A stretch of 64,000 nt of DNA, taken from the NCBI GenBank assembly GCA_963725095.1, contig CAVRXJ010000022.1, positions 135,856 through 199,855 on the forward strand. The letters are read 5' to 3'. The position numbers and the translations under genes are program-made. Shown here piece by piece: positions 8,772 to 32,200 of the stretch (the first letter of the stretch is position 1; the number at the start of each line of letters is the position of its first letter). Source of the stretch: an uncultured Acidobacteriota bacterium. GTDB taxonomy: Bacteria > Acidobacteriota > Thermoanaerobaculia > UBA5066 > Gp7-AA6. The notes below the pieces were generated by a model. That model saw only the letters and a program-made list of their open reading frames with translations. It was not told the DNA's origin and searched no databases.

Positions 8772-8791
8772 ACTGACACTCCGGCCCATTC

Positions 8792-11522
8792 ATGAAACTC
8801 GGCGCGGCGGCCTTCTCCGGCGTCGTCATCCTCGCCCTGTTGGCGGCCCCGGCCGGCGCCGCGTTTTACACCGTCACGAACACCAATGACTCGGGAGCGG
8901 GGTCGCTGCGGCAGGCGATCCTGAGCGCCAACGCGGTCGCCGGGGCGACACGATCCGGTTCAGCATTCCCGGGTCCGGCGTCCATACGATTGCGCCGACC
9001 TCGGCGCTGCCGGCGATCACGAGCCCTGTCACGATCGACGGGAGCGCGCAGCTCGTCGAGATCTCCGGCGCGAGCGCTCCCGATGGCACCGACGCCCTGC
9101 GCGTCACGGGAGGCGGGAGCACGATCCGCCGCCTGACGATCAACCGCTTTCGGCAGCTCCTTTTCGGCGGCGGCGGCAATGCGATCGTGCTCGAGTCGGG
9201 AGGCGGAAACGCGGTGTTCGGCTGCATGATCGGCACCAACACCGCCGGGACCGTCGAGCTCGGCAACGGCGGAAACGGGATCGCGATCGTGGACTCCCCG
9301 AGCAACGTGATCGGCGGCGACGGTGGATCGCTTCAGAGAAACGTCATCGCCGGGGGCTTCGTGGGCGTTTTCATCAAGGGAGCGGGTTCGACCGGAAACA
9401 TCGTCAGGGGCAACCGCATCGGCCTCGGGAACTCCCTCGCGGCGGGGTTCGGGACGGCCGGCGACGGCGTCGTCCTTCGGGAGGGAAGCGGCAACCAGAT
9501 CCTCGGCAACCTGATCGGCGACAACACCGGCAACGGGATCGTGGTCAGCGTCGGGGCGACGGGGAACCTCGTTCAATCAAACGCCATCGGAGTCGAGACG
9601 GGTCCCGGCAGCGAGCCTCTCGGCAACGGCGGCGAGGGAATTCAGGTCAACGCCGCTTCCGGAAACACGATCGCCGGAAATCGGATCATCTGGAACGGCC
9701 GGAACGGAATCCTGCTCTTCAACGGCGCCAGCGGCAATCTCGTGCTGGGGAACTTCGTAGGCACCAACGAGGCGGGAACGGCGAATCTCGGCAACGCCGG
9801 CAACGGCATTCTCGTCACGGAAGGCGACGACAACCAGGTCGGGGGAATCTCGCCGGCCGACCGCAACTTCGTGTGCGGCAACGGCGCCAACGGGATCCGG
9901 CTTCGCAGCGGCAGCTCCGGAAATCTCGTTCGAGGCAATTTCGTCGGCGTAGGCCCCACCGGCGCCGCCAACGGCAACGGCGACGACGGGATCGAGATCA
10001 ACGACGGCGCCCACGACAACGTGATCGGCGGAAAGAGCGCCGGGGCGGGCAACGTCGTCTCCGGTAACGCCGTCAACGGCGTTCGGATCACGGACGCCAC
10101 GACGGCCGGAAACATCGTGCAGGGGAACTGGATCGGATCGGACGCGACCGGGTCTGCCGCGCTCGCAAACGCCGGCCACGGCATCCGAATCGAGAACGGC
10201 GCTCACGACAACAAGATCGGCGGGGCCGCCGCCGGTGGCGGCAACACGATCGCCTTCAACGGCGGCGCCGGTGTCTTCGCCGAATCCGGCGCGGGCAACG
10301 CGATCCTCGGCAACCTCATCCGCGGCAACGGCGGGCTCGGGATCGATCTCGCGCCCGAGGGCGTGACGGCGAACGACGCGGGAGACGCCGACTCGGGCGC
10401 CAACCAGCTTCAGAACTTCCCGGAACTGACGGCGGCCGCCTCGAGCGACGGCACGACGGCCGTGCAGGGAAGCTTGAGCGGCGTTCGCCGCCACGACCTT
10501 CCGGATCGAGTTCTTCGCGAGCGTCCTCTGCGACGCGTCGGGACACGGCGAAGGGCCGCTTCTTCCTCGGCGCGACGGATGTCGCGACGGACGCCGGCGG
10601 CAGCGCGGTCTTCAACGCGTGTCGTTGCCGGTCGCGGCGCGCGGCCCGTTCATCGCCGCCACGGCGACGGACGCGGCCGGAAACACGTCGGAGTTCTCGG
10701 CGTGCGTGACGGTTCCGGGACCGACGGTCTTCGAGCGTCGTCTCCGACGTCCGGCCCCGCGGCGGGCGGGACGGAAGTCACGATCACGGGCTCCGACTTC
10801 CAGGACGGCGCGGCGGCGCTCTTCGGGGGTATCGCGGGCTCGGGCTCGGTCACGGGCGGCACGACGCAGATTGCCGTGACGACGCCGGCGCTCGCTCCCG
10901 GCACGCTGAACGACGTGACCGCCGTCAACCCGAACACGCTTTCGGGGACGCCGCCCGAAGGCCTGGCTCGCGGACTTCTCCGACGTGCCACACGGATACC
11001 TCTTTCACGTCGCCGTCGAGAAAATCTTCCGCGCCGACATCACGACCGGTTGCGGGGGCGGCGAACTACTGCCCCGGCGAGCCGGTCAACCGTGCTGGCA
11101 TGGCGGTCTTTCTCCTGCGCGGCGAGCACGGCGGCGCGCACCAGCCGCCGGACGCCAAGGGAGGAGTCTTCGACGACGTTCCGCTCGGGACGTTTCTCGG
11201 GGCGTGGATCGAGGAGCTGGCGGCCGAGGAAGATCACGACCGGCTGCGGGCAGGGCAACTACTGCCCCGAGGCTCCGGTCACGCGCGCCGGGATGGCGGT
11301 CTTTCTGCTGCGCGCCAAGCACGGCGCCGACTACCATCCGCCGGCCGGCGCGGGGGACGTCTTCGACGACGTTCCGCTCGGGACGTTCCTCGGCGACTGG
11401 ATCGAGCAGCTCGCCGCGGAAGGCATCACCGCAGGCTGCGCCGCGAAGCTCTTCTGCCCGGATCAGCCCGTGACCCGCGGCGAGATGGCGGTCTTCCTGG
11501 TCCGGACGTTCGGCCTGACTGA
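8792..11522 (+). CDS. Secreted parallel beta-helix repeat protein with C-terminal IPT/TIG and three Cys-containing SLH-like repeats; at least 8 frameshifts
   Basis: Signal peptide [23 protein letters not shown]. Long run of right-handed beta-helix repeats (GNxIxGNxIG...NGxxGI). IPT-like [16 protein letters not shown]...[12 protein letters not shown]. Three repeats of F.DVP..F..WIE.LAAEGIT.GC....YCP..PVTR..MAVFL. Pieces lie in ORFs 8792, 9187, 10619, 10985, 11100. The stop is ambiguous (11516-11522). Confidence 0.75.
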
Positions 11523-11526
11523 CGCC

Positions 11527-12477
11527 CTACGCCAGCCCCGGCACCTCGTCGGTTCCCTCGTTGATCCCTTCGAAGAGGATCGTCGAGAGGTAGCGCTCGC
11601 CCGTGTCGGGCAGCATCGCCAGGAGCACGGAGCCCTTGGGCGCCTTTTCGGCGACCTTGCGCGCCGCGGCGAACGTGCCGCCGGAGGAGATCCCGCAGAA
11701 GATCCCTTCCTTGGACGCGAGGTCGCGCGCGGCGTCGCGGGCCTCGGTGTCGCTGACCGTCACGATCTCGTCGTAGACCTCGCGGGAGAGGACGGCCGGG
11801 ATGAAGTCCGGCGTCCAGCCCTGGATCTTGTGGGGCTTCCACTCGTTGCCCGTCAGGAGCGCGGCGCCTTCGGGCTCCGTCACGATGACCTTGATCTCCG
11901 GCCGGGCCTTCTTCAGCATCTCGCCGGCGCCCGTCAGCGTCCCGCCCGTGCCGTAGCCGGTGACCCAGTAGTCGAGCCTCTTGCCGGCGAAGTCGCGCAG
12001 GATCTCCGGCCCGGTCGTGTTGCGGTGGTACTCGGGGTTGGCCGGGTTCTCGAACTGCCGCGCCAGGAACCACCCGTTCTTCTTCGCGAGCTCCTCGGCC
12101 TTCTTGACCATTCCGCTGCCCCTCTCGGCCGCCGGCGTGAGGACGACCTTGGCCCCGAGGATGCGCATCAGCTTTCGCCGCTCGATCGAGAAGCTGTCCG
12201 ACATCAGGGCGACGAAGGGGTAGCCCTTCGCGGCGCAGACCATCGCGAGCGCGATCCCGGTGTTTCCCGACGTCGCCTCGACGACCGTCTGGCCCGGCTT
12301 CAGCGTGCCGCGCCGCTCCGCGTCCTCGATGATCGCGATGGCGAGCCGGTCCTTGACCGAGGAGAGCGGGTTGAAGGCCTCGCACTTGACGTAGATCGTG
12401 ACGCCCGAAGGCGAGAGCTTGTTGATCCGCACGACGGGCGTGTTGCCGATGGTTCCGAGGATGTTTTCGTGAATCAT
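11527..12477 (-). CDS. cysK: Cysteine synthase A (O-acetylserine sulfhydrylase)
   Basis: ATG at 12477 inside ORF 11527..13116. 316 aa with the PLP lysine motif [19 protein letters not shown] and GTGGT loop. Intact. Confidence 0.95.
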
Positions 12478-12680
12478 GGCTTTCCGTCCTTTCGCTTCGG
12501 CTGAATGAAAATCGGGGCACGGGGCCGAAAGATTCCGCCGCCGGCCAGACCCGCCGGGCGCGGCTGACATCGGCCCTGGGCGCCGAAGGATCGGGCGGCG
12601 TCTGGAACGGGCGGCGGCGATCGCGGCATTCATCAAGGCGCCATTGCTCCCTCGAGAGAGCGTAGGATATGCGATCCAAT

Positions 12681-14083
12681 ATGAAGAGAAAATTGCTTCT
12701 TGCCGCGATGAGCCTCCTCGTGACGACCGCCGCCCCGGCCGCCCCCCGGACGATGCGGCGTGGACTACGACCACACGGGCAACGCGACCGAGGAGCGGTT
12801 CGCCCGTCGATCGGGTGGTGCTCGAGCCGCTGGAATGGCCCGGCAATCCGGCCCGACCTCTCGACGACACGAACCTCGGGACGTATTTCTTCGAGGTCAT
12901 CGACCGCAAGACCAACCGGGCCGTGTACTCGCGGGGATTCGACTCGGTCTTCGGGGAGTGGGTCACGACGGACGAGGCGAAGGAGCGCTGGCGCACGTTC
13001 TCGGAGTCGCTGCGCTTCCCGGCGCCCTCGGCGCCCGTCCAGATCGTCGTGAAGCGGCGCGACAAGAACAACGCCTTCCGCGAGGTCTGGACCACGGTCG
13101 TCGACCCGAACGACATGTTCGTGGACAGCGCGAAGCCGGCGCCCGTCGGACCCCTGATCGAGATCGAGAAGCACGGGCCCCCCGCGCAGAAGATCGACTT
13201 CCTGCTCCTGGGCGACGGCTACACGGCCGCCGAACGGGGGAAGTTCGAAAAGGACGCCCGGCGGATGACGGAGATGCTCTTCGCCGTCGAGCCCTACCGG
13301 TCGCGCCGCAACGACTTCAACGTCTGGGCTCTGTGCCCTCCGACGGAGGAGTCCGGCATCGCGCGCCCCTCGACCGGAATTCACCGGCGCTCGCGCATCG
13401 GCGCGGCCTACGACGCGTTCGGCTCGGAGCGCTACATCCTGACCTTCGAGAACCGTTCCTTCCGCGACGTCGCCTCGTTCGCGCCGTACGAGTTCGTCGA
13501 GATCCTGACGAACTCCCGCACCTACGGCGGGGGCGGCATCTTCGGCCAGTACGCGACGGCCGCCGCCGACAGCCTCTGGGCGCCCTACCTCCTCGTGCAC
13601 GAGTTCGGCCACCACTTCGCCGCGCTCGCCGACGAGTACTACACCTCGGCGGTGGCCTACGGCGCCGCGGCCGAACGCGTCGAGCCCTGGCAGCCGAACG
13701 TGACGGCGCTCGCCGACCCGGCGGCGCTGAAGTGGAAGGACCTGGTCGCGCCCGGGACGCCGCTGCCGACGCCCTGGCCCAAGGAACGCTTCGAAGCCGA
13801 GCAGAGCGAGGCCCAGAAGAAGCGGCGCCAGATCCGCGCGGAGCGCGCGCCCGAGGAAAAGATGGACGCCCTCTTCCAGCAGGAGAAGGAGGCGTCGACG
13901 AAGCTGCTCGGCTCCGACGCCTACTCCGGGAAGATCGGGGCCTTCGAGGGCGCGATGTACGAGAGCAAGGGCTTCTACCGGCCCCGGGCCGACTGCATCA
14001 TGTTCACCCGCGACGACGTCGGCTTCTGCGCCGTGTGCAGCCGGGGAATCACGACCGTGATGGATCTCTACACCGCCCGCTAG
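12681..14083 (+). CDS. Peptidase M64 (IgA-peptidase family) with signal peptide, two frameshifts (near 12757 and 12800)
   Basis: MKRKLLLAAMSLLVTTAAPAAP signal (frame of ORF 12669). M64 N-domain VDYDHTGNATEERF (ORF 12760 frame). Remainder in ORF 12644 frame with DFLLLGDGYT and zinc motif HEFGHHFAALADEY. Confidence 0.85.
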
Positions 14084-14146
14084 GACCTCGAAACTTTCCC
14101 GGGTCCCACGCCGCGTGCGTAGAATCCCGTTCAGGTTGACCCTTCC

Positions 14147-15432
14147 ATGAGCTTTCGACGCGGGCTCCAGCTGGCCGGCTTCGCCCGCCGCCACCTCGGG
14201 CGCATGGCCCGGGGCCGGCGCGAGGTGATGGCGCACCTCGCCGCGCCGCGTCCGGAAAACCTTCCCATGCCGACCTTCGTTCAGCTGCGGGTCACCAACC
14301 TCTGCAACCTGCGCTGCAAGATGTGCGGGCAGTGGGGCGATACGGGCATCTACCGCTCCGACGGGTTCTCCGCCTCGGCCACCGACGGCGAGAGCGAGCG
14401 CGACCGGATCCGGGAGCTGATCGGGTTGAACCGCCAGCTCGCGCTCTCGGACTACGTGCGTCTGCTCGACGAGATCGCGCCCTGGAAGCCGATCGTCTCG
14501 CTCTTCGGCGGCGAGCCGCTCCTCTATCCCGACATCCTGCCGCTCGTGCGCGAGGTCAAGAAGCGGGGCCTGACCTGCACGGTGATCACGAACGGAGGCC
14601 GGCTCGAGCCGTACGCGAAGGAGCTCGTCGAGGCCGGCATCGACTCGATCGCCGTCTCGATCGACGGCCCGCCCGAGGTCCACGACCGCATCCGCGGGAA
14701 AGGCGGACAGCTTCCAGAAGGCCGCGGCGGGCGTGCGGGCCGTGGCGATGTGGCGCGAGAGGCTCGGCCGGCCGGCGCCGATGCAGATCGCGATCCTGCC
14801 GGTCACGGAGCTGAACCTCGGATCGATCGCGCCCGCCGTCGAAGCGCTGCGCGAGCTGCCGCTCGACACGATCAACGTCGGCCTGCGCTGGTTCGTGCCC
14901 GAGGGAAGCGGGAGCCGAGTACGAGTCGCGTCATGCGCGAGCACGTTCGGCGTCTCGGGCGATTCCTGGAAGGGCTTCGACTTCGACTGGTCCAAGGCCG
15001 GCGCCTCGAAGACGCGGCAGATGACCGACCTCGTGAAGCTCCTCAAGGGTCTGAAGCGCCGCCGCTACCTCGACTCGGCGGCGGGGAAGCCCTGGGTCTC
15101 GTTCGTCCCCGACGTGCCCGGCCGAAAAGGTGCCCGAGTACTTCTCCGACTTCTCCCAGACCTTCGGCCACAACCTGTGCCCCGTCGCCTGGTACTTCGC
15201 CCAGGTCGAGCCCGACGGCGAGGTCTGCTTCTGCGGGGACTTTCCCGACTACTTCATCGGCAACGTGCGCAAGCAGCCGTTCCGCGACGATCTGGACGGG
15301 GGAGAAGGCCTGGAAATTCCGCGAGAAGCTCGCGAAGGAGCCCCTCCCCATCTGCGCCCGCTGCTGCGGCAACTACGTGTACGGGAAGTGGGAACGGCCG
15401 CCGCTCGCCGCGAACTCCGAGAAGCCCGATGA
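14147..15432 (+). CDS. Radical SAM/SPASM-domain protein, at least 3 frameshifts (near 14705, 15128, 15288); 3' end uncertain
   Basis: CX3CX2C motif VTNLCNLRCKMCG, GGEPLLYPD, TNGG. C-terminal Cys-rich SPASM/twitch-like region CPVAWYFAQVEPDGEVCFCGDFP..GNVRKQPFRDIWTGEKAWKFR..PICARCCG. Segments in ORFs 14147, 14733, 15130 and back to the 14147 frame, where no stop occurs. Nearest stops in other frames are at 15430-15432 and 15453-15455. Confidence 0.8.
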
Positions 15433-16365
15433 GCCAGTCGGCCCAGAACCGGTAGAAGTTGAACCACTGCGTCGGGTGGTCGCGGATCACGCGCTCGAGG
15501 TCCGCGGCGACGCGGCCCATCATGCGGGCGGCGTCTTCCTCGGGGGAGGTCGCGGGATCGGCGTCGAGGGGCTCGCCCCAGACGTTGTAGTACGCCCCGT
15601 CCGGGCGGCGCAGGAAGAAGCCCGGCAGGATCGGGCAGCCGCAGAAACGGGCGAGCAGGGCGGGGGAGCGCAGGAAGGGCGTCGGGCGGCCGAAGAACGG
15701 CACGGTCGACCTTGTCCTCCGGGTAGGCCCGGTCGACGAGCATCGCGACGGCCCGGCCGCCGTCGATCGCCGTGCGGACGCGGAAGGCGGTGGACATGGA
15801 GCTGCCGATGTCGATCGACTCGACGCCGACGCGGTCGCGCAGCTGCTGGCGCATCTCCTGAACGCGCGGCGAGAGCTCGGGCTGGCCGACGACCGCGGGC
15901 GTCAGGCCGTGGCGGCGCAGCGTCACGGCGCCCATCTCCCAGTTGCCGACGTGGCCGGTGACGAGGAGGAATCCCCTCCCGCCGCGCCGGGCGCGGTCCA
16001 GGACACGGGCGTCCGCGTCGAAGGTCTCGATCCGGGGCGTGAAGGCCTCGCCCCGGAGCCGCCACGTGTCGATGGTGTGCCGGCCGTACTCGAAGAAGAC
16101 CCGGCGCACGGTCCTTTCCGCCTCGTCCTCCGAAAGGCCCAGGGCCTTCCGGAAGTTGTCCCGCATCCCCGCTTTCGTCTTCGGAAAGAAAGGTCACGGC
16201 GAGCGAGTTGCCGACCAGGTTGACGCCGTTCAGAACGGCCATCGGAAGCCACCGCCCGCCGTAGTGGAGACCCCCGTAGACGACGCGGTTGGAGAGGCCG
16301 TGGCTCACCCATTTCGTGCGCGCGCGCAGGGCGTGCCTATCGGACATCGCAGCGGGACTATACAA
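15373..16365 (-). CDS. Lysophospholipid (LpxL/HtrB-type lauroyl/myristoyl) acyltransferase family protein, two frameshifts; 3' end uncertain
   Basis: Three collinear pieces: MSDRHALRARTKWVSHG... (ORF 15520..16365); FLLVTGHVGNWEMGA (HX4-type acyltransferase motif) and AMLVDRAYPE (ORF 15249..16166); FFGRPTPFLRSPALLA...DHPTQWFNFYRFW (ORF 15254..15703). The family normally ends shortly after the QWF.F.RFW string (~15440). The formal stop of that frame is only at 15254. Confidence 0.75.
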
Positions 16366-16376
16366 TTCGGGTGGGA

Positions 16377-17825
16377 ATGAACGTTCTCCTCGTCCGCCCC
16401 GACCCGGGCAACGAACGCTTCGGCCTGGGACCCTTCTTTCGGGTGGAGCCGCTCGGCCTCGAGTACATCGGGCAGGCCCTGCGCGAGCGCGGGCACCTGC
16501 CGACGATCGCGGATCTGCGCTTCGGCCGCGGCCTCGCCTCCTGGATCCGCCGCACGCGGCCCCGCGTCGTCGGGATCTCCGGGATGCACGCGCTCGAATA
16601 CGACCGGATGCTCGAGACCGCGCGGGAGATCCGCCGGATCTGTCCCGAGGCCTTCATCGTGGTGGGCGGCCACGCCGCCGCGGCCTACTCGGCGCCGCTC
16701 GAGCGCGACGAGGTGGACGCGATCTGCGTCGACGACGGGGAGGAGGTCGTTCCGGCGCTGGCGGACGCGCTCGCGGCCGGCCGGTCCCCCTCCACCGTGC
16801 CCGCCCTGCGCCTGCGCACGCCGCGACGGCTGGATCTCGACCGCGCCGCTCTCCGAGCGCACGGGCCTCGACCGCGTCCCCCGTGCCGGCGCGCGATCTC
16901 GTCGAGCGCTACCGCAACCGCTACCACTGCCTGCTCTTCAAGCCCGTCTGGCTGATCGAGACGGCCCGCGGCTGTCCCTTCCGCTGCAACTTCTGCTCGG
17001 TGTGGCAGCTCTACGACCGCTCCTTCCGCGAGCGGTCGATCGGGGCCGTCGTCGACGACTTCGCGTCGGTCGGCGACAGCGTCTTCGTCGCCGACGACCT
17101 CTTCTGGAACCACCCGGCGCGCAGCCTCGAGCTCGCGCGAGGCCCTGAAGAAGCGCGGCGTGCGCAAGCGGTGGCTGCTCGTGCAGACCCGCACGGACCT
17201 CGTGTGCCGGCATCCGGACCTGCTCGAGGCCTGGCGCCCGCTCGCGAAGGACTTCGACATCTTCTTCGGCCTCGAGTCGGCCTCCGACGCGGGCCTGGCG
17301 AGCGTCGTGAAGGACGCCCGCATCTCCTCGAGCGTCGAGGCTGCGCGCCTCTCGCGCTCGCTCGGCTACGGGGTCACGGGCAACTTCCTCGTCGATCCCG
17401 ACTGGTCCGAGGGGGAGTTCCGCGAGCTCTGGGACTTCGTCGCGCGCCACGGCTTCGAGCGCGCCGGCTACACGATCCTGACGCCGCTGCCCGGCACCGA
17501 CCTCTACCGCAAGCTCGCGCCCGCGCTCGCCGGCCAGCCCTGGTTCAAGTACGACATGCACCACGTCCTCTGGGAGCCGCGCCTGGGCGCGAAGCGCTTC
17601 TTCGAGCTGTACGCGGAGACCTGGCGCCGGTCGATCCTGAACACGAGCGGCCAGAAGAGCTGGCTCGACTGGATGCGGCAGATCCGGCCCGCGCAGATCC
17701 CGTACCTGACGCGCGTGCTCTGGCGCACGCAGCGGATGATGAACGCCGAGGCCTACCTCAAGGAGCACGGGGCCTGTGCGGTCGAGCCGGCGCGCCTGCC
17801 CGGCCGGGTCCTGGAGGCTTCGTAG
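16377..17825 (+). CDS. B12-binding-domain radical SAM protein, three frameshifts (near 16822, 16877, 17138)
   Basis: N-terminal cobalamin-binding-type Rossmann region (VVGISGMHALEYDRMLETAREIRRICPEAFIVVGGHAA). Radical SAM motif ETARGCPFRCNFCSV. C-terminal FGLESASD...LTPLPGTDLY...WFKYDMHHVLWEP. Head-to-head with the acyltransferase gene (starts 12-30 bp apart). Confidence 0.85.
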
Positions 17826-17866
17826 ACCACCCGGCGCTCGATTCCGCCCTTCCTCGCTTCGACGTC

Positions 17867-18879: not shown

Positions 18880-18955
18880 GGGGGCGATCCCCCTCACCGC
18901 CCCCTCTCCCCGCGTCGGGGGGTGCGTGGCGAGACCCCCTTATGCTTGACGGCCG

Positions 18956-19874: not shown

Positions 19875-19950
19875 CGCTCCTCCTACGGCCCATAGAGCAG
19901 CCACTGGAAGACATTGACCAGGAACTTCGCCCCCGCGGCCCGCCCGGGCG

Positions 19951-22900
19951 TCAGGGCAGGCTGAAGGTTCGGGAGAGGAAGACCGCCATCTCGCCCCGGG
20001 TCACCAGGCCGTCGGGGCAGTACTGGCCGCCGCCGCAGCCGCTGGTGATGCCCTCGCGGGAGAGCTCCTCGATCCAGTCTCCGAGGTAGGTTCCGAGCGG
20101 AACGTCGGTGAAGAGGTCGCCCGTCGCCGCGGGCGGATGGTAGCCGGCGGGATGCTTGGCCCGAAGGAGGAAGACGGCCATCGACGCGCGGCTGACGAGC
20201 GCGTCGGGACAATACTCCGTCGCGCTGCAGCCGCTCGTGATGCCTTCGCGGGCGAGCTCTTCGATCCAGGCGCCGAGGTAGGTTCCCAGCGGCACGTCGG
20301 TAAAGAGGTCACCCGTCGCGGCCGGCGGATGATAGCTTCCGCCGTTCTTTCCCCGCAGCAGGAAGACCGCCATGCTCGACCGGTTCACCTGGTCGGCCGG
20401 GCAGTAGTTTCCGAGGCTGCATCCAGAAGTGATCCCGGCCCGGAAGATCTTCTCGATCGCCTTATGGTACGGATGGGGAGTCGGCACGTCGGAAAAATCC
20501 GCCATGTACGCGCGCAGCAGCTCGCCGCTCTGTCCGTCGGGGTTGCTCGTCACGACGTCGTTGAGCGTTCCGGGCGGCAGGGGAGGAGCCACCGCCGAGA
20601 TCGCGGTCGGACCCGAGACGACCACGTCGCCCGCAGGCACGCCGCCAATCAAGACGGTGGCGCCGGCTTCGAAGTTGTCACCGGTGGCCGTGATCGTCAT
20701 CGCTCCGGAGGCGGGCCCCGAGGTCGGCACGATCGCGGCCAATTCGGGTGCGCAGAGCACGACAGTCGTTCCAGCAACCGCCGTGTTGTTGGACGCGCCC
20801 GGGTCGCTCGTCGCAGCCGACACGGAGACCGCCGCGGTGACCGAACCCTCGTTGGCCGGCGCCGTTGCGGAGAGGACGATGGCCGGCGCGTCTCCCACGT
20901 CGAGGCTCATGCGCGAGCAAGTGACGGGGGTTGAGCCAGCGCAGCTCCACCCGTCTCCGGAAGATGACAGCAGCGAGGCGCCTGCGGGAAGAGTTGCCGT
21001 CACCGACACGGACGACGCCACGGTCGGCCCCGCATTGTGAGCCGTCAGTGTGTACGTCAGACTACCTCCGGCACAGGCTTCCGACGGCGAGGGCCCTGCG
21101 GAGATCGAGAGGTCCGCCGCGCGGTACGTGGCTCCGTACGTCGCCGGAGACGCGCCCGCCACGATTCCGTGGCTCGCCGTGCCGCCGTCGGACCAGAAGG
21201 CGAACCCGTAGGGAATCCCGCCCAGGCGTCTGCGTCGGTGAGGCTTGGATTGTCACCTCGGAGCCGACGATGACGGTCTGGACGAACGGCGTCGTGCCCC
21301 CCCCGGTGGCCACAGTCAGCGGCATTCCGGACGGGTTCGATTGGAAGGTCAGCAACACGGTCTGCGGGTTGAGCGCCACGGTCTTGGTGTGCGTGAGACC
21401 GTTCGAGTTGATCGCCGTCAGCTTCAGCTCGAGGGAGGACGGGTACTCGTGGTCGGGCGCCGAGAACGATCCGCTGGCGACTCCTGGAAATGTCTGAACG
21501 GTATGGGTGTGGCAGTTGGCCGGGCAGTGCCGGATGAGGAGCGTCCACGACAGGGCGGAGGCGGGCAGGGTGCCATCCTGCGGGTCCGTCGCATGGCCCG
21601 AAAAGGTGATCGTGTCCCCGACTTTCCAGATGAGGGTCGGCGAGGGCGAGTCGATCGTCGCGGTCGGGGAGACGCCGCCGACGACGACCGTCAGCGGGTC
21701 GCTCACCGCCGATACGCCGTGATTGTCGGTCACACGGAGCGCGCGCCGTGTGAGAGCCGGGCTGCGTGTAGACGAAGGTCGGACTGATCAGCGTCGAGTC
21801 TTGGTAGGTCCCTTCATCCTCGAAGTCCCAGGCATATGTGATCGTGTCGCCGGGCCGCGCGGCGTGGGACCCGGAACCGTTGAACTGCACCGTGAGCGGG
21901 GCCGATCCGGAAAGGGGAGCCGCCGTCGCCATGGCCGTGGGCGCAAAGCTCTGGACGCGCCGGATCGTGCCTCCGCCGTGGTCTGCATAATACAGGTCAC
22001 CGCCCGGCCCAATCTGCAGGTCAACGGGCGTCGCGGCCCCGGCGATGAAGGTTGCGCGGGTCGACGGCACCGGCTTGCCCTGCGCGTCGGGAAACATGAC
22101 CCAGATGCACTGGCGCGAATAGTCGCCAAAAAACAGTGCCCCTTCGTAGCTCGCCGGGTAGCTGCCCGTACCGTAGAAAGCAAGGCCGGAAATCGACGAG
22201 CTACCTGTCGGACAGGTCTCGCCGGAGACGACCTTGCTGGTGTGCGCGTACTTGTAAGACGGGCTTATGACCCCGCTGGATGAGTTGTAGAGGTTGTTGC
22301 AGAGCGAGAGGTTGGCCGCCTGGTAGCCGGCCTGCGGGGCGGCGCCCTCGTAACACGGCCAGCCGAAGTTCGCCACCGGCGAACCGGTCGGATTGGCGAG
22401 CTGATTGATCTCTTCCCACGAGCCCCAGCCCACGTCGCCGATCCAGAGTGATCCGGTTCCCGGTTGTATCGTGAAGCGGAACGGATTGCGCAGGCCGTAC
22501 GCCACGACGCGCTGCGCGATCGGGTCGGTGCTGCGCAAAGAGCGGGTTGTCCGGAAGGGCATTGCCGTTGCCGTCCACGCGCAGGATGGCGCCATTGGTC
22601 AGGACCGGGCCGCCGGCGGCGCGCAGAAGGCTCTGGCTGCGCAGCGAACCTCCTTCGGCATCGGGCGATGCCAGCGGAGTTCCGACGGGCAGGGGCGGGT
22701 CTCCCAGGGGATTCTTGGGAATGCCGAACTGCCCGTAGTCCACGTTGTTGAAGCTGGAGCCATCGCCTCCGCTGACGTAGAGGGAACCATCGGGCCCGAA
22801 GTGCAGGTCGCCGATCGAGTGGCTGGGGAACTGCTGGCCCCAGGCTTCGAGGAGGACCTCCTCCACGCCGGTCATCACGCTTCCGGCGGCGGTCAGGCGC

Positions 22901-23334
22901 GACAGGCGTCCGCTGATCACACAGCCGTTGGCCGTGCCGGGCGGATTGGGGCAGCCGTCGTTCCAGGTCGGCGCGGTGCCCCCGATGGGCGCGTCATAGC
23001 TGTAGAGCACATAGACGTAGGGCGTCGTCGGAAAGTTGGGGTGCAGCGCGAGGCCGAGAAGCCCCCGATCCCAGTAGTCATCGATCTCCGTGCGCAGGTC
23101 CGCGAAGATCGTCGGCGTCGGAGAGGAAAGGCTCTCGAAGACCTTGATGAGACCGCTTTTTTCCGCGACGAAGACCCGTCCGTCCGACGCGAACCGCACG
23201 GCGGTGGGGCGGGTCAATCCCGAGAAGACGATCGTCTCCTGGAATCCCGGAGGCAGCGTCGCGGCACCCGTCTTGATCGCCTGGAAAAAGGCGAGCAGGA
23301 CGGCCGCCGCGAAGATGGTGCGGCGCGATCTCAT
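19951..23334 (-). CDS. Secreted multidomain protein: PQQ-dependent sugar dehydrogenase-like beta-propeller, PKD, Ig-like, DUF11-like, IPT/TIG and three Cys-containing SLH-like repeats; 3 frameshifts (near 22540, 21740, 21215)
   Basis: MRSRRTIFAAAVLLAFFQAIKTGAA signal. SGDH-like strings LPPGFQETIVFSGLTRPTAVRFASDGRVFVAEKSG, GLLGLALHPNF, YGLRNPFRF. PKD APLTVQFNGSGS..YAWDFEDEG. LTYTLTAHNAGPTVAS (DUF11-like). IPT, then 3x F.DVP....WIEEL.REGITSGC...YCP. Ends ...FLSRTFSLP. Confidence 0.8.
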
Positions 23335-23382
23335 TGGCCCTCGGAAATCATCCTTCGTTTCGCCCGGACGCTGCAAAGCAAA

Positions 23383-24150
23383 CTACGACCCGAACTCCCG
23401 CGGTTGTCCAGATTTTGACGGTTTCCGGCGAAATCGACCCTGAATTCTATCCCTCACGGGGGCCCCGCCTGACCCTCGATAGTCGCCCGGAGCGCGTGCG
23501 CTATCCGACAGGCGGGAAAGGGTTTCCGACAGCTCCCGACGGGAGGCCGCGAGGCCCTCGGCCAGGCCGTTTCGCTCCCGGATTCCCACGGCCTCGCGCA
23601 GTGCCGAGGTGCTGCGGGAGAGGTGCTCCTGCGCCCGCCCGGGCTCGAGCTCCGAGAGGCGCCGCAGGGCAAGCCCCATGTTGTGCAGGGTCACCCCCCG
23701 GGCGATCTCCCGCTCCGGGGTCCGCCAGACGAGGGCCTCGAGGAAGAGGCTGACGGCCTCCTGGAGCTCGGTGCCCGTGCGGCCGAGGTTCGAGAGCGCC
23801 GTCGCCAGGTTGTGGAGCGCCCGGGCCCTCCACCCGTCTTCGGCGTGCGCGGCGAAATGCTTGAGCGCCGCTGCGAAGCAGATGCGGGCGCGGGAAAGAT
23901 CGGCCGCCGGTCCCGGGCTACCGTAGAAGACGCCGGCGTTGTGGAAGAAGCGGGCCTGCGCCTCGGTCGAGTCGAAGGTGAATCCCGGCAGCGCCTCCCA
24001 GAGGTCGTCGGCGAGCAGGCGCGCGGTGTCCTCGTCGCCCCGCTCTCGCAATTCTTCCTGCGCGCGGAACCACTCGCGATAGGCCGCGGTCGGCGAACCG
24101 GCGAACGCCCCGCGAAAGTGTTCGAGGAGTTGCGAGATCCCGTCGTCCAC
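23383..24150 (-). CDS. TPR-like hypothetical protein (last gene of the 27.0-23.4 kb operon); 3' end uncertain
   Basis: GTG 24150 lies 5 nt after the upstream stop. Helical-repeat strings ALHNLATALSNLGRTGTELQEAVSLFLEAL and VTLHNMGLALRRL. The C-terminal ~35 aa overlap the promoter region of the next gene and may be read-through. Confidence 0.55.
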   Translation of the reverse strand: MDDGISQLLEHFRGAFAGSPTAAYREWFRAQEELRERGDEDTARLLADDLWEALPGFTFDSTEAQARFFHNAGVFYGSPGPAADLSRARICFAAALKHFAAHAEDGWRARALHNLATALSNLGRTGTELQEAVSLFLEALVWRTPEREIARGVTLHNMGLALRRLSELEPGRAQEHLSRSTSALREAVGIRERNGLAEGLAASRRELSETLSRLSDSARAPGDYRGSGGAPVRDRIQGRFRRKPSKSGQPREFGS

Positions 24151-24155
24151 GGGCC

Positions 24156-25238
24156 CTAGCCGCGCGGCGTCCGGGTGGGAGTCGGCGTTTCTTCCTCGTA
24201 ATAGACGCCGGGCTTCCGCGTCGGGCCGGCGGTCGGCTCGCTCGCGGCCGGCCGGGGACGGGACGTCGGGCGCGGCGTGAGTGTCGGAGGCGGCGGGGGA
24301 GTCGGCCGCTCGGGAGTCGGCGTGTCGGTCGCGGTCGGCGTGGGAGTGGGCGTCGGAGACGGCGTCGGGGTCGCCGTGGGCGTCGCGGATGCGGTCAGGA
24401 GCGCGCGGGCCGTCTGCGTCCTTCCTTTCGGGAGGGGTGTCGGAGGAATCCTCTCGCCGAAGATGACGACGGGTCGCTTGATGGTCGGCGTCGGCGGAGC
24501 GGTCGGTCCCGCGGCCGCAGGCGCAGGCGGCGGCGCGGCGGACGTCGGTCCGGGGGTTGGCGGCCGGGCGATGGTCGGGGCCGGAAGCGGGAACGTGGGT
24601 GTCGGCGGTCGCGTGATGGTGGCCGGAACGGGGAACGTCGGTGTGGGCGGACGCGTGATCGTCGCCACCGGAGCCGCCTGCGGCTCCGCAACCGGAGGCG
24701 CTGGTGTCGGCGGCCGGGTGATCGTGGCGGCCGGAAGCGGGAACGTCGGCGTCGGCGGTCTCGTGATCGTGGCCGGCACGGCCGCCTGTGGCGCCGAGAC
24801 GGGCGGGGCCGGTGTCGGCGGACGAGTGATCGTCGGCGGCGGAGGCGGAGCCGTCGCGGGTGGCGGCACGGGGGTGGGCGGGAGCGTCATCGTGGGCGGC
24901 GGAGCCGGGGCTGCAGCCGCGGCGGGAATCTTCGTCGGCGCAGGCGTGGGCGGCCGTGTGGGAGTAGCAGACGGGGCCGCCGCGACAGGCGCGGCAGGAA
25001 TCGCGGTCGCCGCCGTCGGCGCGGGAGTCGGCGGCCGCGTGGGCGTGGCAGCCGGCACAGCGGGAGCCGGCGTCGCTTTTTGCGGGGCTTTCGTCGGAGC
25101 CGCCGACGGAGCCGGCTCCGGAGCGGCTTTCGGCGTCGGTGTCAGGAGCCTCGCGACGATGACCTGCGTCGGGTGGCAGGCCCCCGCGGGGATCGTCAGG
25201 GCGGCGAGCAGCAGCGTCCGCGCGAGGGTCTTTCTCAT
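24156..25238 (-). CDS. Pro/Thr/Ala-rich repeat protein with signal peptide (possible lipoprotein)
   Basis: MRKTLARTLLLAALTIPAGAC then ~330 aa of low-complexity sequence with eight T[PI][TA]RPPTP units. Short non-repetitive patch IKRPVVIFGERIPPTPLPKG. Codon frame supported by the mirrored Gly-rich antisense ORF. Confidence 0.6.
   Translation of the reverse strand: MRKTLARTLLLAALTIPAGACHPTQVIVARLLTPTPKAAPEPAPSAAPTKAPQKATPAPAVPAATPTRPPTPAPTAATAIPAAPVAAAPSATPTRPPTPAPTKIPAAAAAPAPPPTMTLPPTPVPPPATAPPPPPTITRPPTPAPPVSAPQAAVPATITRPPTPTFPLPAATITRPPTPAPPVAEPQAAPVATITRPPTPTFPVPATITRPPTPTFPLPAPTIARPPTPGPTSAAPPPAPAAAGPTAPPTPTIKRPVVIFGERIPPTPLPKGRTQTARALLTASATPTATPTPSPTPTPTPTATDTPTPERPTPPPPPTLTPRPTSRPRPAASEPTAGPTRKPGVYYEEETPTPTRTPRG
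24549..25046 (-). repeat. In-frame tandem coding repeats (TITRPPTPTFP[LV]PA-type units)
   Basis: Protein residues 78-243 of the 25277 ORF numbering. Units TPTRPPTPAPT x2, TITRPPTPAPPV..PQAA x2, TITRPPTPTFP[LV]PA x3, TIARPPTPGP. Confidence 0.7.
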
Positions 25239-25297
25239 CGTGTCAGGCGCGAAGCATACCGCGGCTGGCGGGGTCAACCGAGGCGTTTAAGGTGCGG

Positions 25298-26402
25298 TTA
25301 CTCCCGGAAGTAGCCGTGCAGGTTGTGCAGGGCCTGGCGGTCGATCTTGCGGCGGCGCAGGGACTCGCGCAGCAGCGCGAGCGCGGCGAATCCCTCGGGG
25401 ACCATCTGCTCTTCGTCGATGATCGGCAGCGCCGCGCGGACCTCCCACTCGGCCTGGGCGTCCTGCTCGGTCTGGAGCAGCGCGTCGGCCAGCACGAGGT
25501 GGATTGCGGCGGCGTCGCCCCGCATGCCGACCTGCTCGGCGTCGCGGACGGCTTCGCGGTAGGCGTCGATCGCCTCGATCGGCTTGCCCTGCTCGCGGAG
25601 GATGTCGCCGACGCACCAGCGCAGCTTCACGAGGCCGACCTGGCTGTCGGACCTCTTCAGGAGGTCGAGCGCCTGGCGCGCGTAGTCGAGCGCGGCCTGC
25701 GGGTTCGCCCTGGAGGCGGTAGAGCTGCGCGAGGTTGTTCGCCGCGGGGGCGAGGAGCTTCAGGTCGCCTCCGACCTGCGCCTCCCCGTAGACTTCCCGG
25801 AAGACCTCGGCCGCCTTCGAGAAATCGCCCGTTTCGCGGCAGGCGATGCCTTCGAGGAATCGGCACTTCGAGGCCTCGTCGAAGAGGCCGAGCTTGCGCG
25901 AGCTCTCGGCCCAGACGGGAGCGAGCTCCAGGACCTCGTCGAAACGTCGCTCTTCCATCGCGAGGGCGAGCTTCTGGTAGGCGAGGCGCGCAAAGTGCAC
26001 GCTGGGGTTGGCGACGCGAACGAAGTTCGACTCGGCGCGGTCGAACCAGCGTCGGGCCTCATCGCGCCGGAAGAGGATGCGGTTCGCGCCGCCGGCCAGC
26101 AGCGCGAGCTCGCCCAGGAAGTACTCGCGCTCGTCGAACTCGCCGATCTTGCGGACGGGGCGGGCGAGGAATCCGTAGAAGAACTCCGCGTCTTCGGCGA
26201 CGACGGCCGGTGCCGTCTCGATGCGCCGGGTGAGGGCCTCGCAGAGGGCCAGCAACACCTCGGGATGCTCGAAGCGCAGCTCCCGCACGCGCTCGGCGCG
26301 CTCGCTGATCGGGACGTCGAGGACGCGCTCGGCGGCGGCGCGCCCCTCCTGCACGGAGACGCTCTCGTGGAGCGCGGGGAAGCGGACGAGCTCGCCCCTC
26401 AA
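25298..26402 (-). CDS. TPR-repeat protein of unknown function, one frameshift near 25700
   Basis: The proposed TTG start 26402 overlaps the upstream TGA (TTGA). ORF 25287..26567 frame (…NNLAQLYRLQG) continues in ORF 25298..25630 (…GDILREQGKPIEAIDAYREAVRDAEQ). Repeated TPR-like helices. Confidence 0.6.
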
Positions 26403-26782
26403 GAGTCCTCCTCCGAGCCCGCTTCCGGGGGCTTCGGCTTCTCGAGGCCCCGCTCGATCTCGATGGCGATGACTTCGGGCCCGAGTGTGAGGGAGCGCGT
26501 GAGGCGGTCGTCCTCCGCGAGCAGGTCCTCGAGCCGGGAGATCGAGTAGACGTGCCCGGCCCGGCAAGCCATCAGGAGCAACTCGGAGCGCAGAGACTCC
26601 GGCCGACGGCTTCCCGGTCGCCGACAGAATCGCTGGAACCAGTCGTAGAGGCGCTGCTCGACTTCCGTGGCTTCCTTGGGCGGAAGCCGGTAGTTCGTGA
26701 CGAGGGCCCTCTCGATCAGCGGCAGGATCTGCCCGAAGACCGAGGCGGCCTCCTTGTTGCGTCCGGTGAAGGTCGAGGACAT
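26399..26782 (-). CDS. Hypothetical protein, faint resemblance to sigma-70 region 2 only
   Basis: ATG 26782 (TTG 26791 also in frame). ILPLIERALVTNYRLPPKEATEVEQRLYDWFQRFCRR...LRSELLLMACRAGHVY loosely mimics ECF sigma region 2.1-2.4 spacing. No region 4. Acidic tail. Confidence 0.5.
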   Translation of the reverse strand: MSSTFTGRNKEAASVFGQILPLIERALVTNYRLPPKEATEVEQRLYDWFQRFCRRPGSRRPESLRSELLLMACRAGHVYSISRLEDLLAEDDRLTRSLTLGPEVIAIEIERGLEKPKPPEAGSEEDS

Positions 26783-26882
26783 GGAGCTCAACCGGGTCCT
26801 TCCGGGTGAAGTCCCTGTCTTCGTCGGGCGCTCTCGGCGCCAGATGGCGAAACGCTTCGAAGTCGTCGCAAGAGTCGTTCGA

Positions 26883-26999
26883 TCAGAACGGGATGTGACT
26901 CTGAACCTTGATCGGAAACGGCTTTTCCGCCGGCTTGGGCGCCGGAGTCGGCTGAGGCTGTGTCTGGACCTGCGCGCTCTGAGTGGAATTGGAACCCAT
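26883..26999 (-). CDS. Unannotated 38-aa ORF (MGSNSTQSAQVQTQPQPTPAPKPAEKPFPIKVQSHIPF)
   Basis: Below the 60-aa cutoff of the ORF track. ATG 26999 preceded by AAAGGAG with 8-nt spacing, ~95-nt leader from a near-consensus promoter, TGA at 26885-26883. First cistron of the operon. Confidence 0.45.
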   Translation of the reverse strand: MGSNSTQSAQVQTQPQPTPAPKPAEKPFPIKVQSHIPF

Positions 27000-27090
27000 G
27001 GCTGGAATCTCCTTTCGCGTAAAGAAACGAATATCCACCTACCCCGGGACTTGAGAAAAAGTGAAACTCACCAGGACAGAAACTGGCCAA

Positions 27091-27118
27091 ATCATACGCC
27101 TGCGACGTCCGCCGTCAA
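27091..27118 (-). promoter_or_regulatory. Putative sigma-70-type promoter (TTGACG-N16-TATGAT) for the small ORF/unknown operon
   Basis: The minus strand reads aaaaagtgcTTGACGgcggacgtcgcaggcgTATGATttgg. Located in a locally AT-richer 190-bp gap. Confidence 0.4.
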
Positions 27119-27192
27119 GCACTTTTTGACGCCGGCGGCCCTCCGGACGCTCGCCGGAGCGGCAAGTGCCCTTTCGTCAGTGCTTTGAGTCC

Positions 27193-30100
27193 TCACGGCA
27201 GGGAGAATGTCCTCGCCAGAAAGGCCGCCATTTCGCCCCGCGTGGTCGTCTTGTTCGGACAGAAATCGCCGCCCCCGCATCCCACCGGTGATGCCTTCGT
27301 GCAGCAGCTGCTCGATCCAGCGCGCGAATGGGTCGCTCGCCGGCACGTCATCGAAGAGCCCGACGGCGGCCGGCGGCTGGTAGCTGCCGCCGTGCTTGGC
27401 GCGCAGGAGCATCACCGCCATCGAGGCGCGGTTGACCACGGCGCCGGGCAGTAGTTGCCCATCCCGCAACCGGTGGTGATCTGTTCCGTCAGGAGCTGCT
27501 CGATCCACGGCGCCCCGAAGGCGTCGGCGGCGACGTCGCCGAAAGCCGTTCCGGTCGCCGGCGGCGGGCGCGAACGACGACCCGTGCTTTCCCCGCAGCA
27601 GGAAGATCGCCATCTGGTCCCGCGTGACCGCCGCGTCCGGGCAGTAGCTTCCGGCGTTGCAGCCCGTGGTGATCCCCGCGCGGAAGATCTTCTCGACGGC
27701 GTTGTGGAAGAGCTGGCTCGGCGGGACGTCCAGAAAATCCGCCATCCACGCCTTGGGGAGCGTTCCGCCGCAGGCGTCGGGGTTGCCGACGACGACGTCG
27801 TTGAGAGTCCCGGGAGAGAGCGCGGGCGTCGTCGCCGTGATCTGTGTCTCGCCGGGCACCGCGACGCTGCCGGCGTCGGCGCCGCCGATCGCGAGCGTCG
27901 CGCCGGTCTGGAAATCCTTGCCGGCGATCGTCACGGCGGTTCCTCCGGCGGCGGGGCCCGAGCGCGGCGAGATGGAAGCGGGAGCGGGCAGCACGATCGC
28001 GAACGCCGTGACGAATGCGTCCGTCGTTCCGCCGAGCGTGTCGTCGGCGGGATCGGCGGTCGGGAAATCGCTCGAGCTCGTTTGCCCGGCGACGAAGTCG
28101 TTGCCCGCTCCGTCGAGCGCGACGCCGTACGCCGCGTCGGTGCCGGCGCCTCCGAGGTAACTCGCGAACGAAAGGCCGGCCGGTCCCGGGATCGGAGGGG
28201 CGGATCATCGCGAAGAAGGCGTCGTAGCCGCCGCCGCTGCCGGGCTGCAGCGGACAGGTGCGCTGCGGGAAATCGCCGGAGACGGTGAACCCGGAGACGT
28301 GGGCGACGCCCTGCGCGTCGAGCGCGAGGCCGAAGCCCTCGTCGTCGTTCGAGCCGCCGAGGTACGTCGCGTAGAAGAGCGCCGCTGCCCCGGCCAGGTC
28401 CGGGTCGATCCTCGCGAAGTGGGCGTCGAAGACGCCGCCGAACGTGCGCTGGACGGCGTCGGGCGTCGTCGCGAGCGCGTCGGAGCTCGTCGTGCCGATG
28501 ACCGCGAGCTTGCCGTCCCCCTCCGCGAGGATCGTGTAGCCGTCGTCGTAGCCGGCCCCGCCGAGGTAGCTCGAGAGGAGCAGGCCCGATCCCGCGGCGT
28601 CGAAGAGCGAGACGAAGCCGTCGTAGCCGCCGCCCGTCTCCTCCTGGAACGGGCTCTCCGTCGGAAAGTCGGTCGAGGCCGTCCGCCCGGTCACCGCGAG
28701 GACGCCGCCCGGGCCCCGTGCGATGCCGAACCCCTGATCGTCGCCGCTTCCGCCGAGGAAGGTCGAGAAGACGAGGGACGCCGCGCCGGACTTCGACGTG
28801 TCCAGGCGCGCGAGGAAGGCGTCGCTCGACGGCGTCGCAGGCGCCGTCGGTGCCGCAGGATTCGTCGAGGACGCCGGCCGTGCTCGGGAAATCCGCCGAG
28901 TAGGTCTGGCCGGTGATCCAGGCGTTGCCGGAGTCGTCCACGGCGACGGCCCAGGCGCCGTCGCCGTTGGAGCCGCCGAAGTAGGTCGCGTAGAGGAGCG
29001 ACGAGCCGTCGGCGCCGAGCTTGGCGAGGAAGCCGTCGGCGCCGATGCCCGCCGCCGAGCCGAACGCGGTCTGGTAGGCGCCGGCGGTGGTCGGAAATTC
29101 CGCGCGGGCGATCCCCGCGACGTAGGCGACGCCCGCGCCGTCGACGGCGATGCCGACGCCCACGTCGTCCCCGGTTCCGCCGAGGTAGGTCGCGTAGACG
29201 AGGGATTCGGCACCGGTCTGCGACGGATCGATCTTGGCGACGAAGGCGTCGCTCGCCGCGCTGTCGCAGTTGCCGTCGGAGCCGCAGTCCGCGTCGATCG
29301 GACCGACCGTCGGAAAGTCCGTCGAGAGCGTCGAACCCGGTCACGTAGGCCTTGCCGGAGGCGTCGGCCGCGATCGCGTAGGCGATGTCGTCGCCGCCGC
29401 CGCCGAGGTAGGTCGATTCGAAGATCCGCGTGTCCACGAGCAGGGCGCGCGCGATGAGTCGTAGCCCCGGGGAAATGTGAGGCCGATGCTCCCGTCGGCG
29501 TGGACGGCGCGGCGCGCCATCCTCCGCGAGCTCCGATCTCCCGCGCCTTCCTGCCAGGCCTCGGGCTCGCCTGCCGCCGCTTCGGGTCGCGTTTTCGCGC
29601 TCCGGTCGCGCAGGCGCCATCGGATCAGCGACGGGTCGACTCCGGGCGCGACGACGAAAGTGCTCCGGATCGTTCCGCCGGCGCTCTCCAAGCGCAGGTC
29701 GATTCCGGGATAGAGCCCGCGGTAGAGGAGCCCGCGATAGGCGGGCAGCCCCGAACGCCAGCGTGCCGGATTGCTGCCGCGCAGGTAGCTGATCTTCGCG
29801 GCGATCGGATCGATTCCGGATACGGCCGGGTCCGGCTGCGCGCCTTCGAAGGAAATCGCGCCCAACCGAAACGGCCTCGCGTGCGGGCCTGCCTCGAGAC
29901 GTCGAGCCGCGTCCCGCTCGCCGGGGCGGAAAGGGCCGGCGTCGCCGCGCGCGGCGTCATCCAGATGATCTGCCCGGACGTGAAGAGCACCGTGCGCCCG
30001 GCGATCGCCGCCTGGAAGCGGATGTCCGGCCCGTCTGTCCGGCGTTGGGAACGAAGAAGGCCGGGATCTTCGCGGCGTTCTCAGCCGGCGCGAAGGTCCC

Positions 30101-30214
30101 GCTCTTCAGGTTCGCCGCGCCCGCCGGAAAGGGAGCCGCGAGGACGAAGGAGCAGACCGCCGCGGCCAGAAGGGCCCGAATCTGGGAGGGAATGCGGGGA
30201 TCGAGACACGACAC
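27193..30214 (-). CDS. Secreted SBBP beta-propeller-repeat protein with C-terminal IPT/TIG and three Cys-containing SLH-like repeats; many frameshifts
   Basis: Candidate GTG 30214 next to GGAGG. Signal IRALLAAAVCSFVLAAPFPAGAA. N-domain IPAFFVPNAGQT...ISYLRGSNPARWRSGLPAYRGLLYRGLYPGIDL. Repeated YATYLGGS..D.G.GIA.D..G.A.V.G.T.S.DFP units spread over ORFs 28691, 27931 and 27489. IPT GPAAGGTAVTIAGKDF. 3x SLH-like, ending GEMAAFLARTFSLP with TGA at 27195-27193. Confidence 0.75.
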
Positions 30215-32086: not shown

Positions 32087-32200
32087 TGTAGTCGTGTTTC
32101 AATCTGCGCCGGCAGAGGACAGCGCCGCTCTGCGTGTGATCGCTGGCTCCGATGTCCGGGCCTGACGGGAGTAGAGTCCTGGAGGGGAGCGAGAGAAGCC

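Follow-up and report, generated by a model that had tools for sequence, protein, structure and literature searches.

A C-terminal triple SLH module with paired cysteines in an uncultured acidobacterium and its genomic association with csaB

The window analyzed here, a stretch of 64,000 nucleotides from an uncultured soil bacterium of the Acidobacteriota (contig C22:135856-199855 of a 4.0-Mb, 31-contig assembly; 70% G+C; genome G000 below), contains three genes, A, B, and C, whose products end in a cassette of one IPT/TIG domain and three S-layer homology (SLH) repeats with two cysteines each. We consider it likely that these products are Sec-exported enzymes or binding proteins that sit with their triple SLH module on an envelope glycan pyruvylated by CsaB, and that the cysteine pairs form disulfides. 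This view builds on the domain identity and fold of the module, on the conservation of its ligand residues and cysteines, on the presence of csaB in the genome together with its co-occurrence and linkage with the cassette, and on the envelope of the host, which is that of a diderm with lipopolysaccharide (LPS).

The cassette and its SLH module

All nine repeats in the window, each of about 52 aa, follow the pattern F-x-D-V-...-G-[IV]-T-x-G-C-x5-[YF]-C-P-x3-V-[TNS]-R-x2-M-A-x-F-L, and these features are present at the coordinates given below and are not due to chance. The initial annotation of this DNA had noted a G-C-x5-C-P motif in every repeat, which indeed occurs in 9/9, together with an invariant arginine. 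It had also called the three cassettes identical, which holds for the architecture and not for the sequence: the TIG and SLH parts of A, B, and C share just 57-61% identity over about 259 aa (E 1e-96 to 1e-117), and the cassettes are therefore paralogous, with the same architecture rather than the same sequence. In the profile searches that had been proposed to check the assignment, both domains scored above cut-off in all three proteins. PF00395 (SLH) gave 41.9-46 bits with the stitched proteins, i.e., the translations joined across frame changes, and 50.5 bits with the intact open reading frame (ORF) of B (cut-off 20.8), and PF01833 (TIG) gave 33.2-44.1 bits (cut-off 20.9; E 5e-8 to 7e-11 across A, B, and C).

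A profile of the module matched the structures of Sap (6BT4, 3PYW) over all three repeats (E 1e-15), and it also matched SbsB, OmpM, and Deinococcus SlpA. An AlphaFold2 model of the 192-aa module of B, built with a 40-sequence alignment, showed six helices, two per repeat, with a pLDDT of 94.4 and a pTM of 0.88; a single-sequence run on the 403-aa ORF (pLDDT 35) was unusable. When this model was compared to the PDB using Foldseek, the 15 best matches were all SLH trimers. The match to Sap 3PYW had an E of 4.9e-9 and a TM of 0.79/0.85, and the matches included Paenibacillus alvei SpaA-SLH with bound 4,6-pyruvyl-ManNAc. The predicted fold is thus the three-pronged spindle of SLH domains, and not an unrelated fold, which the initial annotation had named as a refutation. 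On the basis of profile and model, the module of A, B, and C is assigned to the true SLH trimers with a pseudo-threefold spindle. In the source databases, homologues are already named "S-layer homology domain-containing protein," so that membership in the SLH family is already annotated. The cysteine-pair module is a common variant of known SLH anchoring. The C-terminal ends had been described as TFGL or TFSLP, and they read TFGL in A and TFSLP in B and C. A role of this TFxLP end as a sorting signal was considered and rejected, as it is merely the end of helix 2 in the third repeat.

In canonical SLH domains, a backbone flip of SLH-Gly29 is needed for ligand binding, and the inter-helix loop after this residue lines the groove and is flexible in crystals (Blackler et al., PMC6081394). 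The roles of SLH-Gly29, of SLH-Arg43 (salt bridge), and of SLH-Trp13 (stacking) in the ligand site are taken from the same work (PMC6081394). In an alignment of 758 repeats, in which SLH-Gly29 and SLH-Arg43 correspond to Gly25 and Arg39 of the repeat model, Gly29 (GIIxG) was found in 757 and Arg43 (TRAE) in 755 repeats, and both were present in all nine repeats of the window. The same alignment placed the first cysteine at SLH-30, immediately after Gly29, and the second at SLH-36, six residues further on and immediately before the near-invariant proline ahead of the TRAE helix. The flexible loop beside the ligand groove is thus enclosed by the pair. At the equivalent positions, Sap has Asn or Thr, and Glu.

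The cysteines are conserved in the homologues, as the initial annotation had required for its proposal of a special SLH variant. Of the 1061 distinct repeats of 349 homologues, 1059 have both, and this figure also came from a homologue search started with a protein in which one repeat lacks cysteines. The spacing between the two cysteines ranges from x5 to x13, with both ends retained. No description of a cysteine-pair SLH variant was found in the literature searched; the cysteines that are discussed in an SLH paper on LysBT1 are unrelated and form no disulfides.

Pfam searches on the stitched proteins confirmed that A, B, and C each carry the C-terminal IPT/TIG domain with three SLH repeats, that all begin with a signal peptide, and that the heads differ, being a beta-helix in A, a pyrroloquinoline quinone (PQQ)-type propeller in B, and an SBBP propeller in C, all as annotated before. 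The earlier term "giant" was an overstatement for proteins of about 910 (A), 1126 (B), and about 1000 aa (C; stitched frames). The genes are real at the coordinates of the initial annotation, and the claim had to be read across frames, as none of them is one open frame. Gene A (8792..11522, +), analyzed by three-frame reading and Pfam on the stitched protein, encodes a signal peptide (8792-8866), a right-handed beta-helix/NosD-like head (about 8947-10482; Pfam Beta_helix 1.2e-13, NosD 3.5e-10), the IPT/TIG domain (10738..10950; PF01833 E 5.4e-8), and the triple SLH module A1-A3 (10958..11517), which runs through three frames (10958-11062, 11064-11228, 11230-11517) and has GC-x5-CP and Arg43 in each repeat. 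Gene B (19951..23334, -) encodes a signal peptide (23257-23334), a PQQ-type glucose/sorbosone dehydrogenase (GSDH) propeller (about 21945-23256), a PKD domain (21744-21902), an Ig-like middle part (21221-21739), DUF11 (20755-21117), the IPT/TIG domain (20521..20754; PF01833 E 2.6e-10), and the module (19954..20496; PF00395 2e-13 in three stretches). The latter lies in one intact frame, with B1 at 20341-20496, B2 at 20149-20304, and B3 at 19954-20112, and its cysteine pairs are residues 37/43, 101/107, and 165/171 of the 192-aa model. Gene C (27193..30214, -) encodes a signal peptide (about 30110-30214), DUF7948 (29611-29868), SBBP beta-propeller repeats (about 28058-29434), the IPT/TIG domain (27761..27988; PF01833 E 7e-11), and the module in pieces (27196..27736), with C1 at 27581-27736, C2 at 27445-27543 continuing in 27281-27442, and C3 starting within 27281-27442 and ending in 27196-27282.

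Two neighboring frames of the window were noted as side aspects. Between B and C, positions 24156-25277 (-) encode a 373-aa protein in which a signal or anchor segment is followed almost exclusively by Pro/Thr/Ala repeats (TITRPPTPAPP units). At about 32200-33052 (+), the frame of an extracytoplasmic function (ECF)-type sigma factor is prolonged at its C-terminal end by a stretch with the motif H-x3-C-x2-C (ZAS-like anti-sigma), which may represent a fused sigma/anti-sigma protein or two genes merged by an assembly indel.

CsaB, its genomic island, and the spread of the module

A search of the genome for csaB, which had been suggested together with the SLH assignment, identified a PS_pyruv_trans gene at C3:57273-58179 (-), with cassette genes on either side at 46 and 64 kb. 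The stitched protein scored 215.7 bits with TIGR03609 (cut-off 213.1), and a CsaB pyruvyltransferase gene is thus present. Within a set of 31 genomes from the genus, family, and order of G000, csaB was found in 12/12 cassette carriers and in 0/19 non-carriers, and carriers and non-carriers both occurred within one genus. In an evenly drawn sample of 151 genomes of the phylum, all eight cassette carriers had csaB, as had 13 of the 143 others. Fisher tests that ignore kinship gave p = 7e-9 for the 31 relatives and p = 4e-8 for the phylum sample; since related genomes are not independent, these values overstate the case. The pattern nevertheless still needs several joint gains or losses of cassette and csaB.

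The association also extends to gene order. At least seven genomes of Acidobacteriota (G001, G002, G008, G009, G011, G125, and G172) have csaB within a few kb of cassette genes, and this was likewise observed in metagenome-assembled genomes (MAGs) of Sedimenticola, of a gammaproteobacterium, and of a member of the Holophagales. In Ca. Villigracilis, CsaB scored above the cut-off. In G002, which belongs to the same genus as G000, CsaB is the N-terminal part of a fusion protein of about 1,870 residues, in which it is followed by a coiled coil, a GT1/GT4 and a GT2 glycosyltransferase, a second GT1-like stretch, and a methyltransferase (C1:3335662-3341514 of G002, corresponding to L083:13663-19515, minus strand); the homologous stretch of G000 is C3:52669-58179. 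Alongside the fusion, the G002 island encodes a 1,130-residue PMT_2-like GT-C membrane protein, a GT4 glycosyltransferase, a 992-residue protein without a Pfam family, and at least six cassette proteins. A UDP-GlcNAc 2-epimerase (PF02350, MnaA), which supplies UDP-ManNAc in the canonical Gram-positive pathway, was found at the island edge in six genomes, including G000 (C3:70534-71505) and G002 (C1:3359717); with an occurrence in 27/31 genomes, this enzyme is not specific to cassette carriers.

The search for further cassette proteins in G000 that the initial annotation had recommended was productive. A hidden Markov model built from the nine repeats gave 127 domain matches genome-wide, which cluster into 41 loci in the 4 Mb, and PF00395 alone gave 38 matches. 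Type I triples, as in the window, were found at 16 loci. Type II triples, which start with LHVGxSFxDVP and end with LYGP, were found at 20 loci, including C3:31121-40458, and their repeats 2 and 3 have two further cysteines each, one in the linker (Y-x-C) and one in helix 1 (F-C-K). The remaining five loci encode single C-terminal SLH domains. A TIG end of the PGTLNDV type precedes six of the 41 cassettes (four of type I and two of type II). No Cys-free SLH repeats were seen among the 41 loci, except for one repeat that had lost both cysteines. Given its 41 loci in a genome of 4 Mb, the module probably serves as a general means of protein display in this organism. As a side aspect, the triple SLH module at C3:224088-224627 (-) is not C-terminal, as a long domain follows within the same 1,321-aa open frame.

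The five single SLH proteins, which have the cysteine pair and end with ALGLF or ALGLY, are encoded at C2:62217-62366 (+), C2:32829-32978 (-), C23:1046-1195, C27:15180-15332, and C29:315968-316090. By analogy, they might trimerize in the manner of OmpM or SlpA. The best Pfam SLH matches on contig C2 had been considered as a cysteine-free canonical tether, and this was rejected, as they have the cysteine pair and are single C-terminal SLH domains. With respect to the envelope, the genome contains LpxC, four Omp85-family genes, and two secretins, and the host is therefore an LPS diderm.

Beyond this genome, the 192-residue module as a query matched 54,048 cluster representatives at E <= 1e-3 and 3,121 at E <= 1e-30, and a word-index search gave at least 5,894 matches among the candidates scored. 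Named carriers include Thermoanaerobaculia, Vicinamibacteria, Holophagales, Anaerolineales (Ca. Villigracilis), Myxococcota, Sedimenticola, and the isolate Thiolapillus brandeum. A broad survey describes Gracilicutes as practically devoid of the SLH/CsaB system and Chloroflexi as having lost it (preprint 10.1101/2021.05.31.446380). The carrier lineages named here are therefore exceptions.

Proposed anchoring mechanism and alternatives

In the mechanism that we propose, the products of A, B, and C would be exported by the Sec system as enzymes or binding proteins with a beta-helix, a PQQ-type sugar dehydrogenase propeller, or an SBBP propeller as the head, and the IPT/TIG domain would serve as a spacer between this head and the triple SLH module. 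The module would hold its cargo non-covalently on an envelope glycan that is pyruvylated by the CsaB-type pyruvyltransferase and made by the island that carries the csaB-glycosyltransferase fusion. For binding, it would use the same residues as the Gram-positive trimers, namely the backbone flip of Gly29, the salt bridge of Arg43, and the stacking of Trp13, and a local disulfide between Cys30 and Cys36 would close the otherwise flexible inter-helix loop that lines each groove. Glycan binding by the module is a prediction that the co-occurrence with csaB supports indirectly, and the glycan itself may be attached to peptidoglycan, to the outer membrane, or at the surface.

As regards the cysteines, we judge that the pair in each repeat probably forms such a local disulfide that closes the groove loop. 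The retention of both residues in nearly all homologue repeats at variable spacing and the export of the proteins with signal peptides point in this direction, and so do the patterns of gain: the extra cysteines of the type II cassettes of G000 occur in twos (linker and helix 1), resulting in 10 cysteines in all, and the cysteine count is even in 208/243 homologue cassettes. The only repeat of this genome that lacks the pair has lost both residues. A different possibility is that the host is an anaerobe in whose periplasm the cysteines remain reduced, that they are metal ligands, or that they constitute a redox switch that alters the groove loop and thereby attachment. Cultured Thermoanaerobaculia are anaerobes, which agrees with the first of these variants, and since ligand binding is gated by the backbone flip of the glycine that the pair adjoins, it is plausible that a redox change could affect binding. 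Several observations weigh against the disulfide. One homologue repeat has lost only the second cysteine, and with two repeats that lost both and one that lost a single cysteine, a "both or neither" test is nearly without power. DsbB was found in none of the 31 genomes of the order, including G000; VKOR was not found in G000 and was detected in only 6/31 genomes of the order, and the cassette-rich genomes G002 and G022, which are 97-98% complete, gave neither DsbB nor VKOR in these searches. On the other hand, a DsbA-like gene (PF13462) is present in G000, and two thiols that are 5-13 residues apart, without other conserved His, Cys, or Asp residues nearby, would make a poor metal site; nor could the three loops contribute to a joint site, as they line three separate grooves. 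In addition, the pair is equally invariant in Gammaproteobacteria and Anaerolineales, and the pairwise occurrence of the extra type II cysteines is difficult to reconcile with non-disulfide roles. On balance, we regard such roles as rather unlikely and retain the disulfide as the probable state. The scarcity of DsbB and VKOR in these searches contrasts with the many proteins rich in cysteine pairs that these diderms export.

With respect to the ligand, the module could be independent of a pyruvylated glycan and bind peptidoglycan or polyamine-modified peptidoglycan directly, as OmpM does in Negativicutes, or it could mediate protein-protein assembly. Points in this direction, which at the same time weigh against the CsaB-dependent anchoring proposed above, are negative search results for the enzymes that build and attach the classical ligand: the ManNAc transferase TagA/WecG (PF03808) was not found in any of the 31 genomes (G000 and 30 relatives; controls positive), and the LCP (LytR-CpsA-Psr) ligase (PF03816), which joins the polymer to peptidoglycan, was not found in any of the three genomes searched (G000, the 97% complete G002, and the 98% complete G022), with positive controls in Bacillus, Thermus, Deinococcus, and Thermotoga. 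Both the priming and the attachment of the ligand glycan may therefore deviate from those of a textbook secondary cell-wall polymer (SCWP). Furthermore, OmpM-type SLH domains were among the sequence matches. A further point against the proposed mechanism is that SLH-Trp13 is present in six of the nine window repeats, as repeats 2 and 3 have Trp and repeat 1 of A, B, and C has Ala; not every groove need therefore be active. Against a pyruvate-independent role stand the perfect co-occurrence of cassette and csaB in the 31 relatives and their genomic linkage across phyla, the invariance of Gly29 and of the pyruvate-binding Arg43, and the best structural matches, which are trimers that bind pyruvyl-ManNAc, so that we consider such a role improbable. 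An even smaller probability is given to the view that A, B, and C are decaying pseudogenes with real frame shifts. The ORF list and three-frame translations do reveal about nine one-base frame changes in A, three in B, and at least ten in C in the deposited sequence, several of those of A and C within their cassettes, and the only intact ORF among the three genes comprises the last 403 aa of B (19951-21162). However, the acyl-CoA dehydrogenase gene beside A (window 6862-8776, +) and csaB on contig C3 (57273-58179, -) are likewise split over at least two frames by single-base indels, and the B orthologue of G002 is a single uninterrupted frame with which stitched B aligns over residues 1-1126 at 67.9% identity with three gap positions, while there is no premature stop inside any frame used for stitched B. 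As the orthologue is open and collinear with stitched B, and as housekeeping genes and csaB show breaks of the same kind, the frame shifts are most likely assembly indels and not signs of gene decay. That the assembly of 31 contigs is riddled with single-base indels also accounts for the low marker completeness of only 67.6%.

Comparison with known SLH systems and implications

The module resembles that of the Gram-positive SLH/SCWP systems (Bacillus anthracis Sap/EA1, 3PYW and 6BT4; Paenibacillus alvei SpaA, 6CWC and others) in its three tandem repeats and its fold (TM 0.65-0.85), in Gly29, Arg43, and Trp13, and in the presence of csaB in the genome. It differs from them by the cysteine pair at SLH-30/SLH-36 in every repeat and by its position, which is C-terminal to enzymes instead of N-terminal to an S-layer lattice protein. 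The host differs as an LPS diderm of the Gracilicutes in whose group TagA (31 genomes) and the LCP ligase (three genomes) were not found, and in the acidobacterial island, CsaB forms one protein with glycosyltransferase and methyltransferase domains.

C-terminal SLH triplets are reportedly also found in Firmicutes, in the xylanase and pullulanase of Thermoanaerobacterium and in SdbA and OlpB of Clostridium thermocellum. These exoenzymes and cellulosome anchors share the logic of varied catalytic heads with a C-terminal triple SLH module as a common anchor. They differ in that their hosts are monoderm, their SLH domains are not known to have cysteines, and their ligand is a peptidoglycan-linked SCWP.

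The OmpM/SlpA outer-membrane tethers of diderm Terrabacteria (Veillonella/Selenomonas OmpM, 8BYM; Deinococcus SlpA, 7ZGX; Thermus SlpA) are alike in that SLH domains function in a diderm envelope, and those of Thermus and Deinococcus depend on csaB (10.1101/2021.05.31.446380). However, they have one N-terminal SLH domain per chain, followed by a coiled coil and a beta-barrel porin, and form trimers, whereas the window proteins have three SLH domains per chain, C-terminal to soluble heads, and no barrel according to Pfam.

SLH domains and CsaB are the textbook anchor of S-layers, enzymes, and even the outer membrane to the wall in Gram-positives and diderm Terrabacteria. Here, a cysteine-bearing form is found on about 40 exported proteins of one acidobacterium, and at least several thousand proteins from Acidobacteriota, Anaerolineales, Myxococcota, and sulfur-oxidizing Gammaproteobacteria have the cysteine-pair form, with csaB always present in the genomes tested. 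Tentatively, and with doubt prevailing, one may go further and view the cysteine-pair SLH module together with the CsaB-glycosyltransferase island as a horizontally mobile display system that hangs dozens of enzymes on a pyruvylated glycan other than the LCP-attached, TagA-primed wall polymer, in LPS diderms (Acidobacteriota, Gammaproteobacteria, Myxococcota) and Anaerolineales. The glycan of such a system could be anchored in the outer membrane or exposed at the surface. If this were true, the SLH target would not be the one known from Gram-positives and diderm Terrabacteria, and the groove loop, locked by a disulfide, would be an adaptation to the new target. If the cysteines form a disulfide, the loop beside the ligand-gating glycine would be locked, which would offer a simple means of making a carbohydrate-binding site more rigid. 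Should the glycan have no link to peptidoglycan, as hinted by the negative LCP and TagA searches, the system would illustrate how an LPS diderm keeps enzymes at its surface, which is of relevance for how uncultured soil and sediment bacteria retain their exoenzymes.

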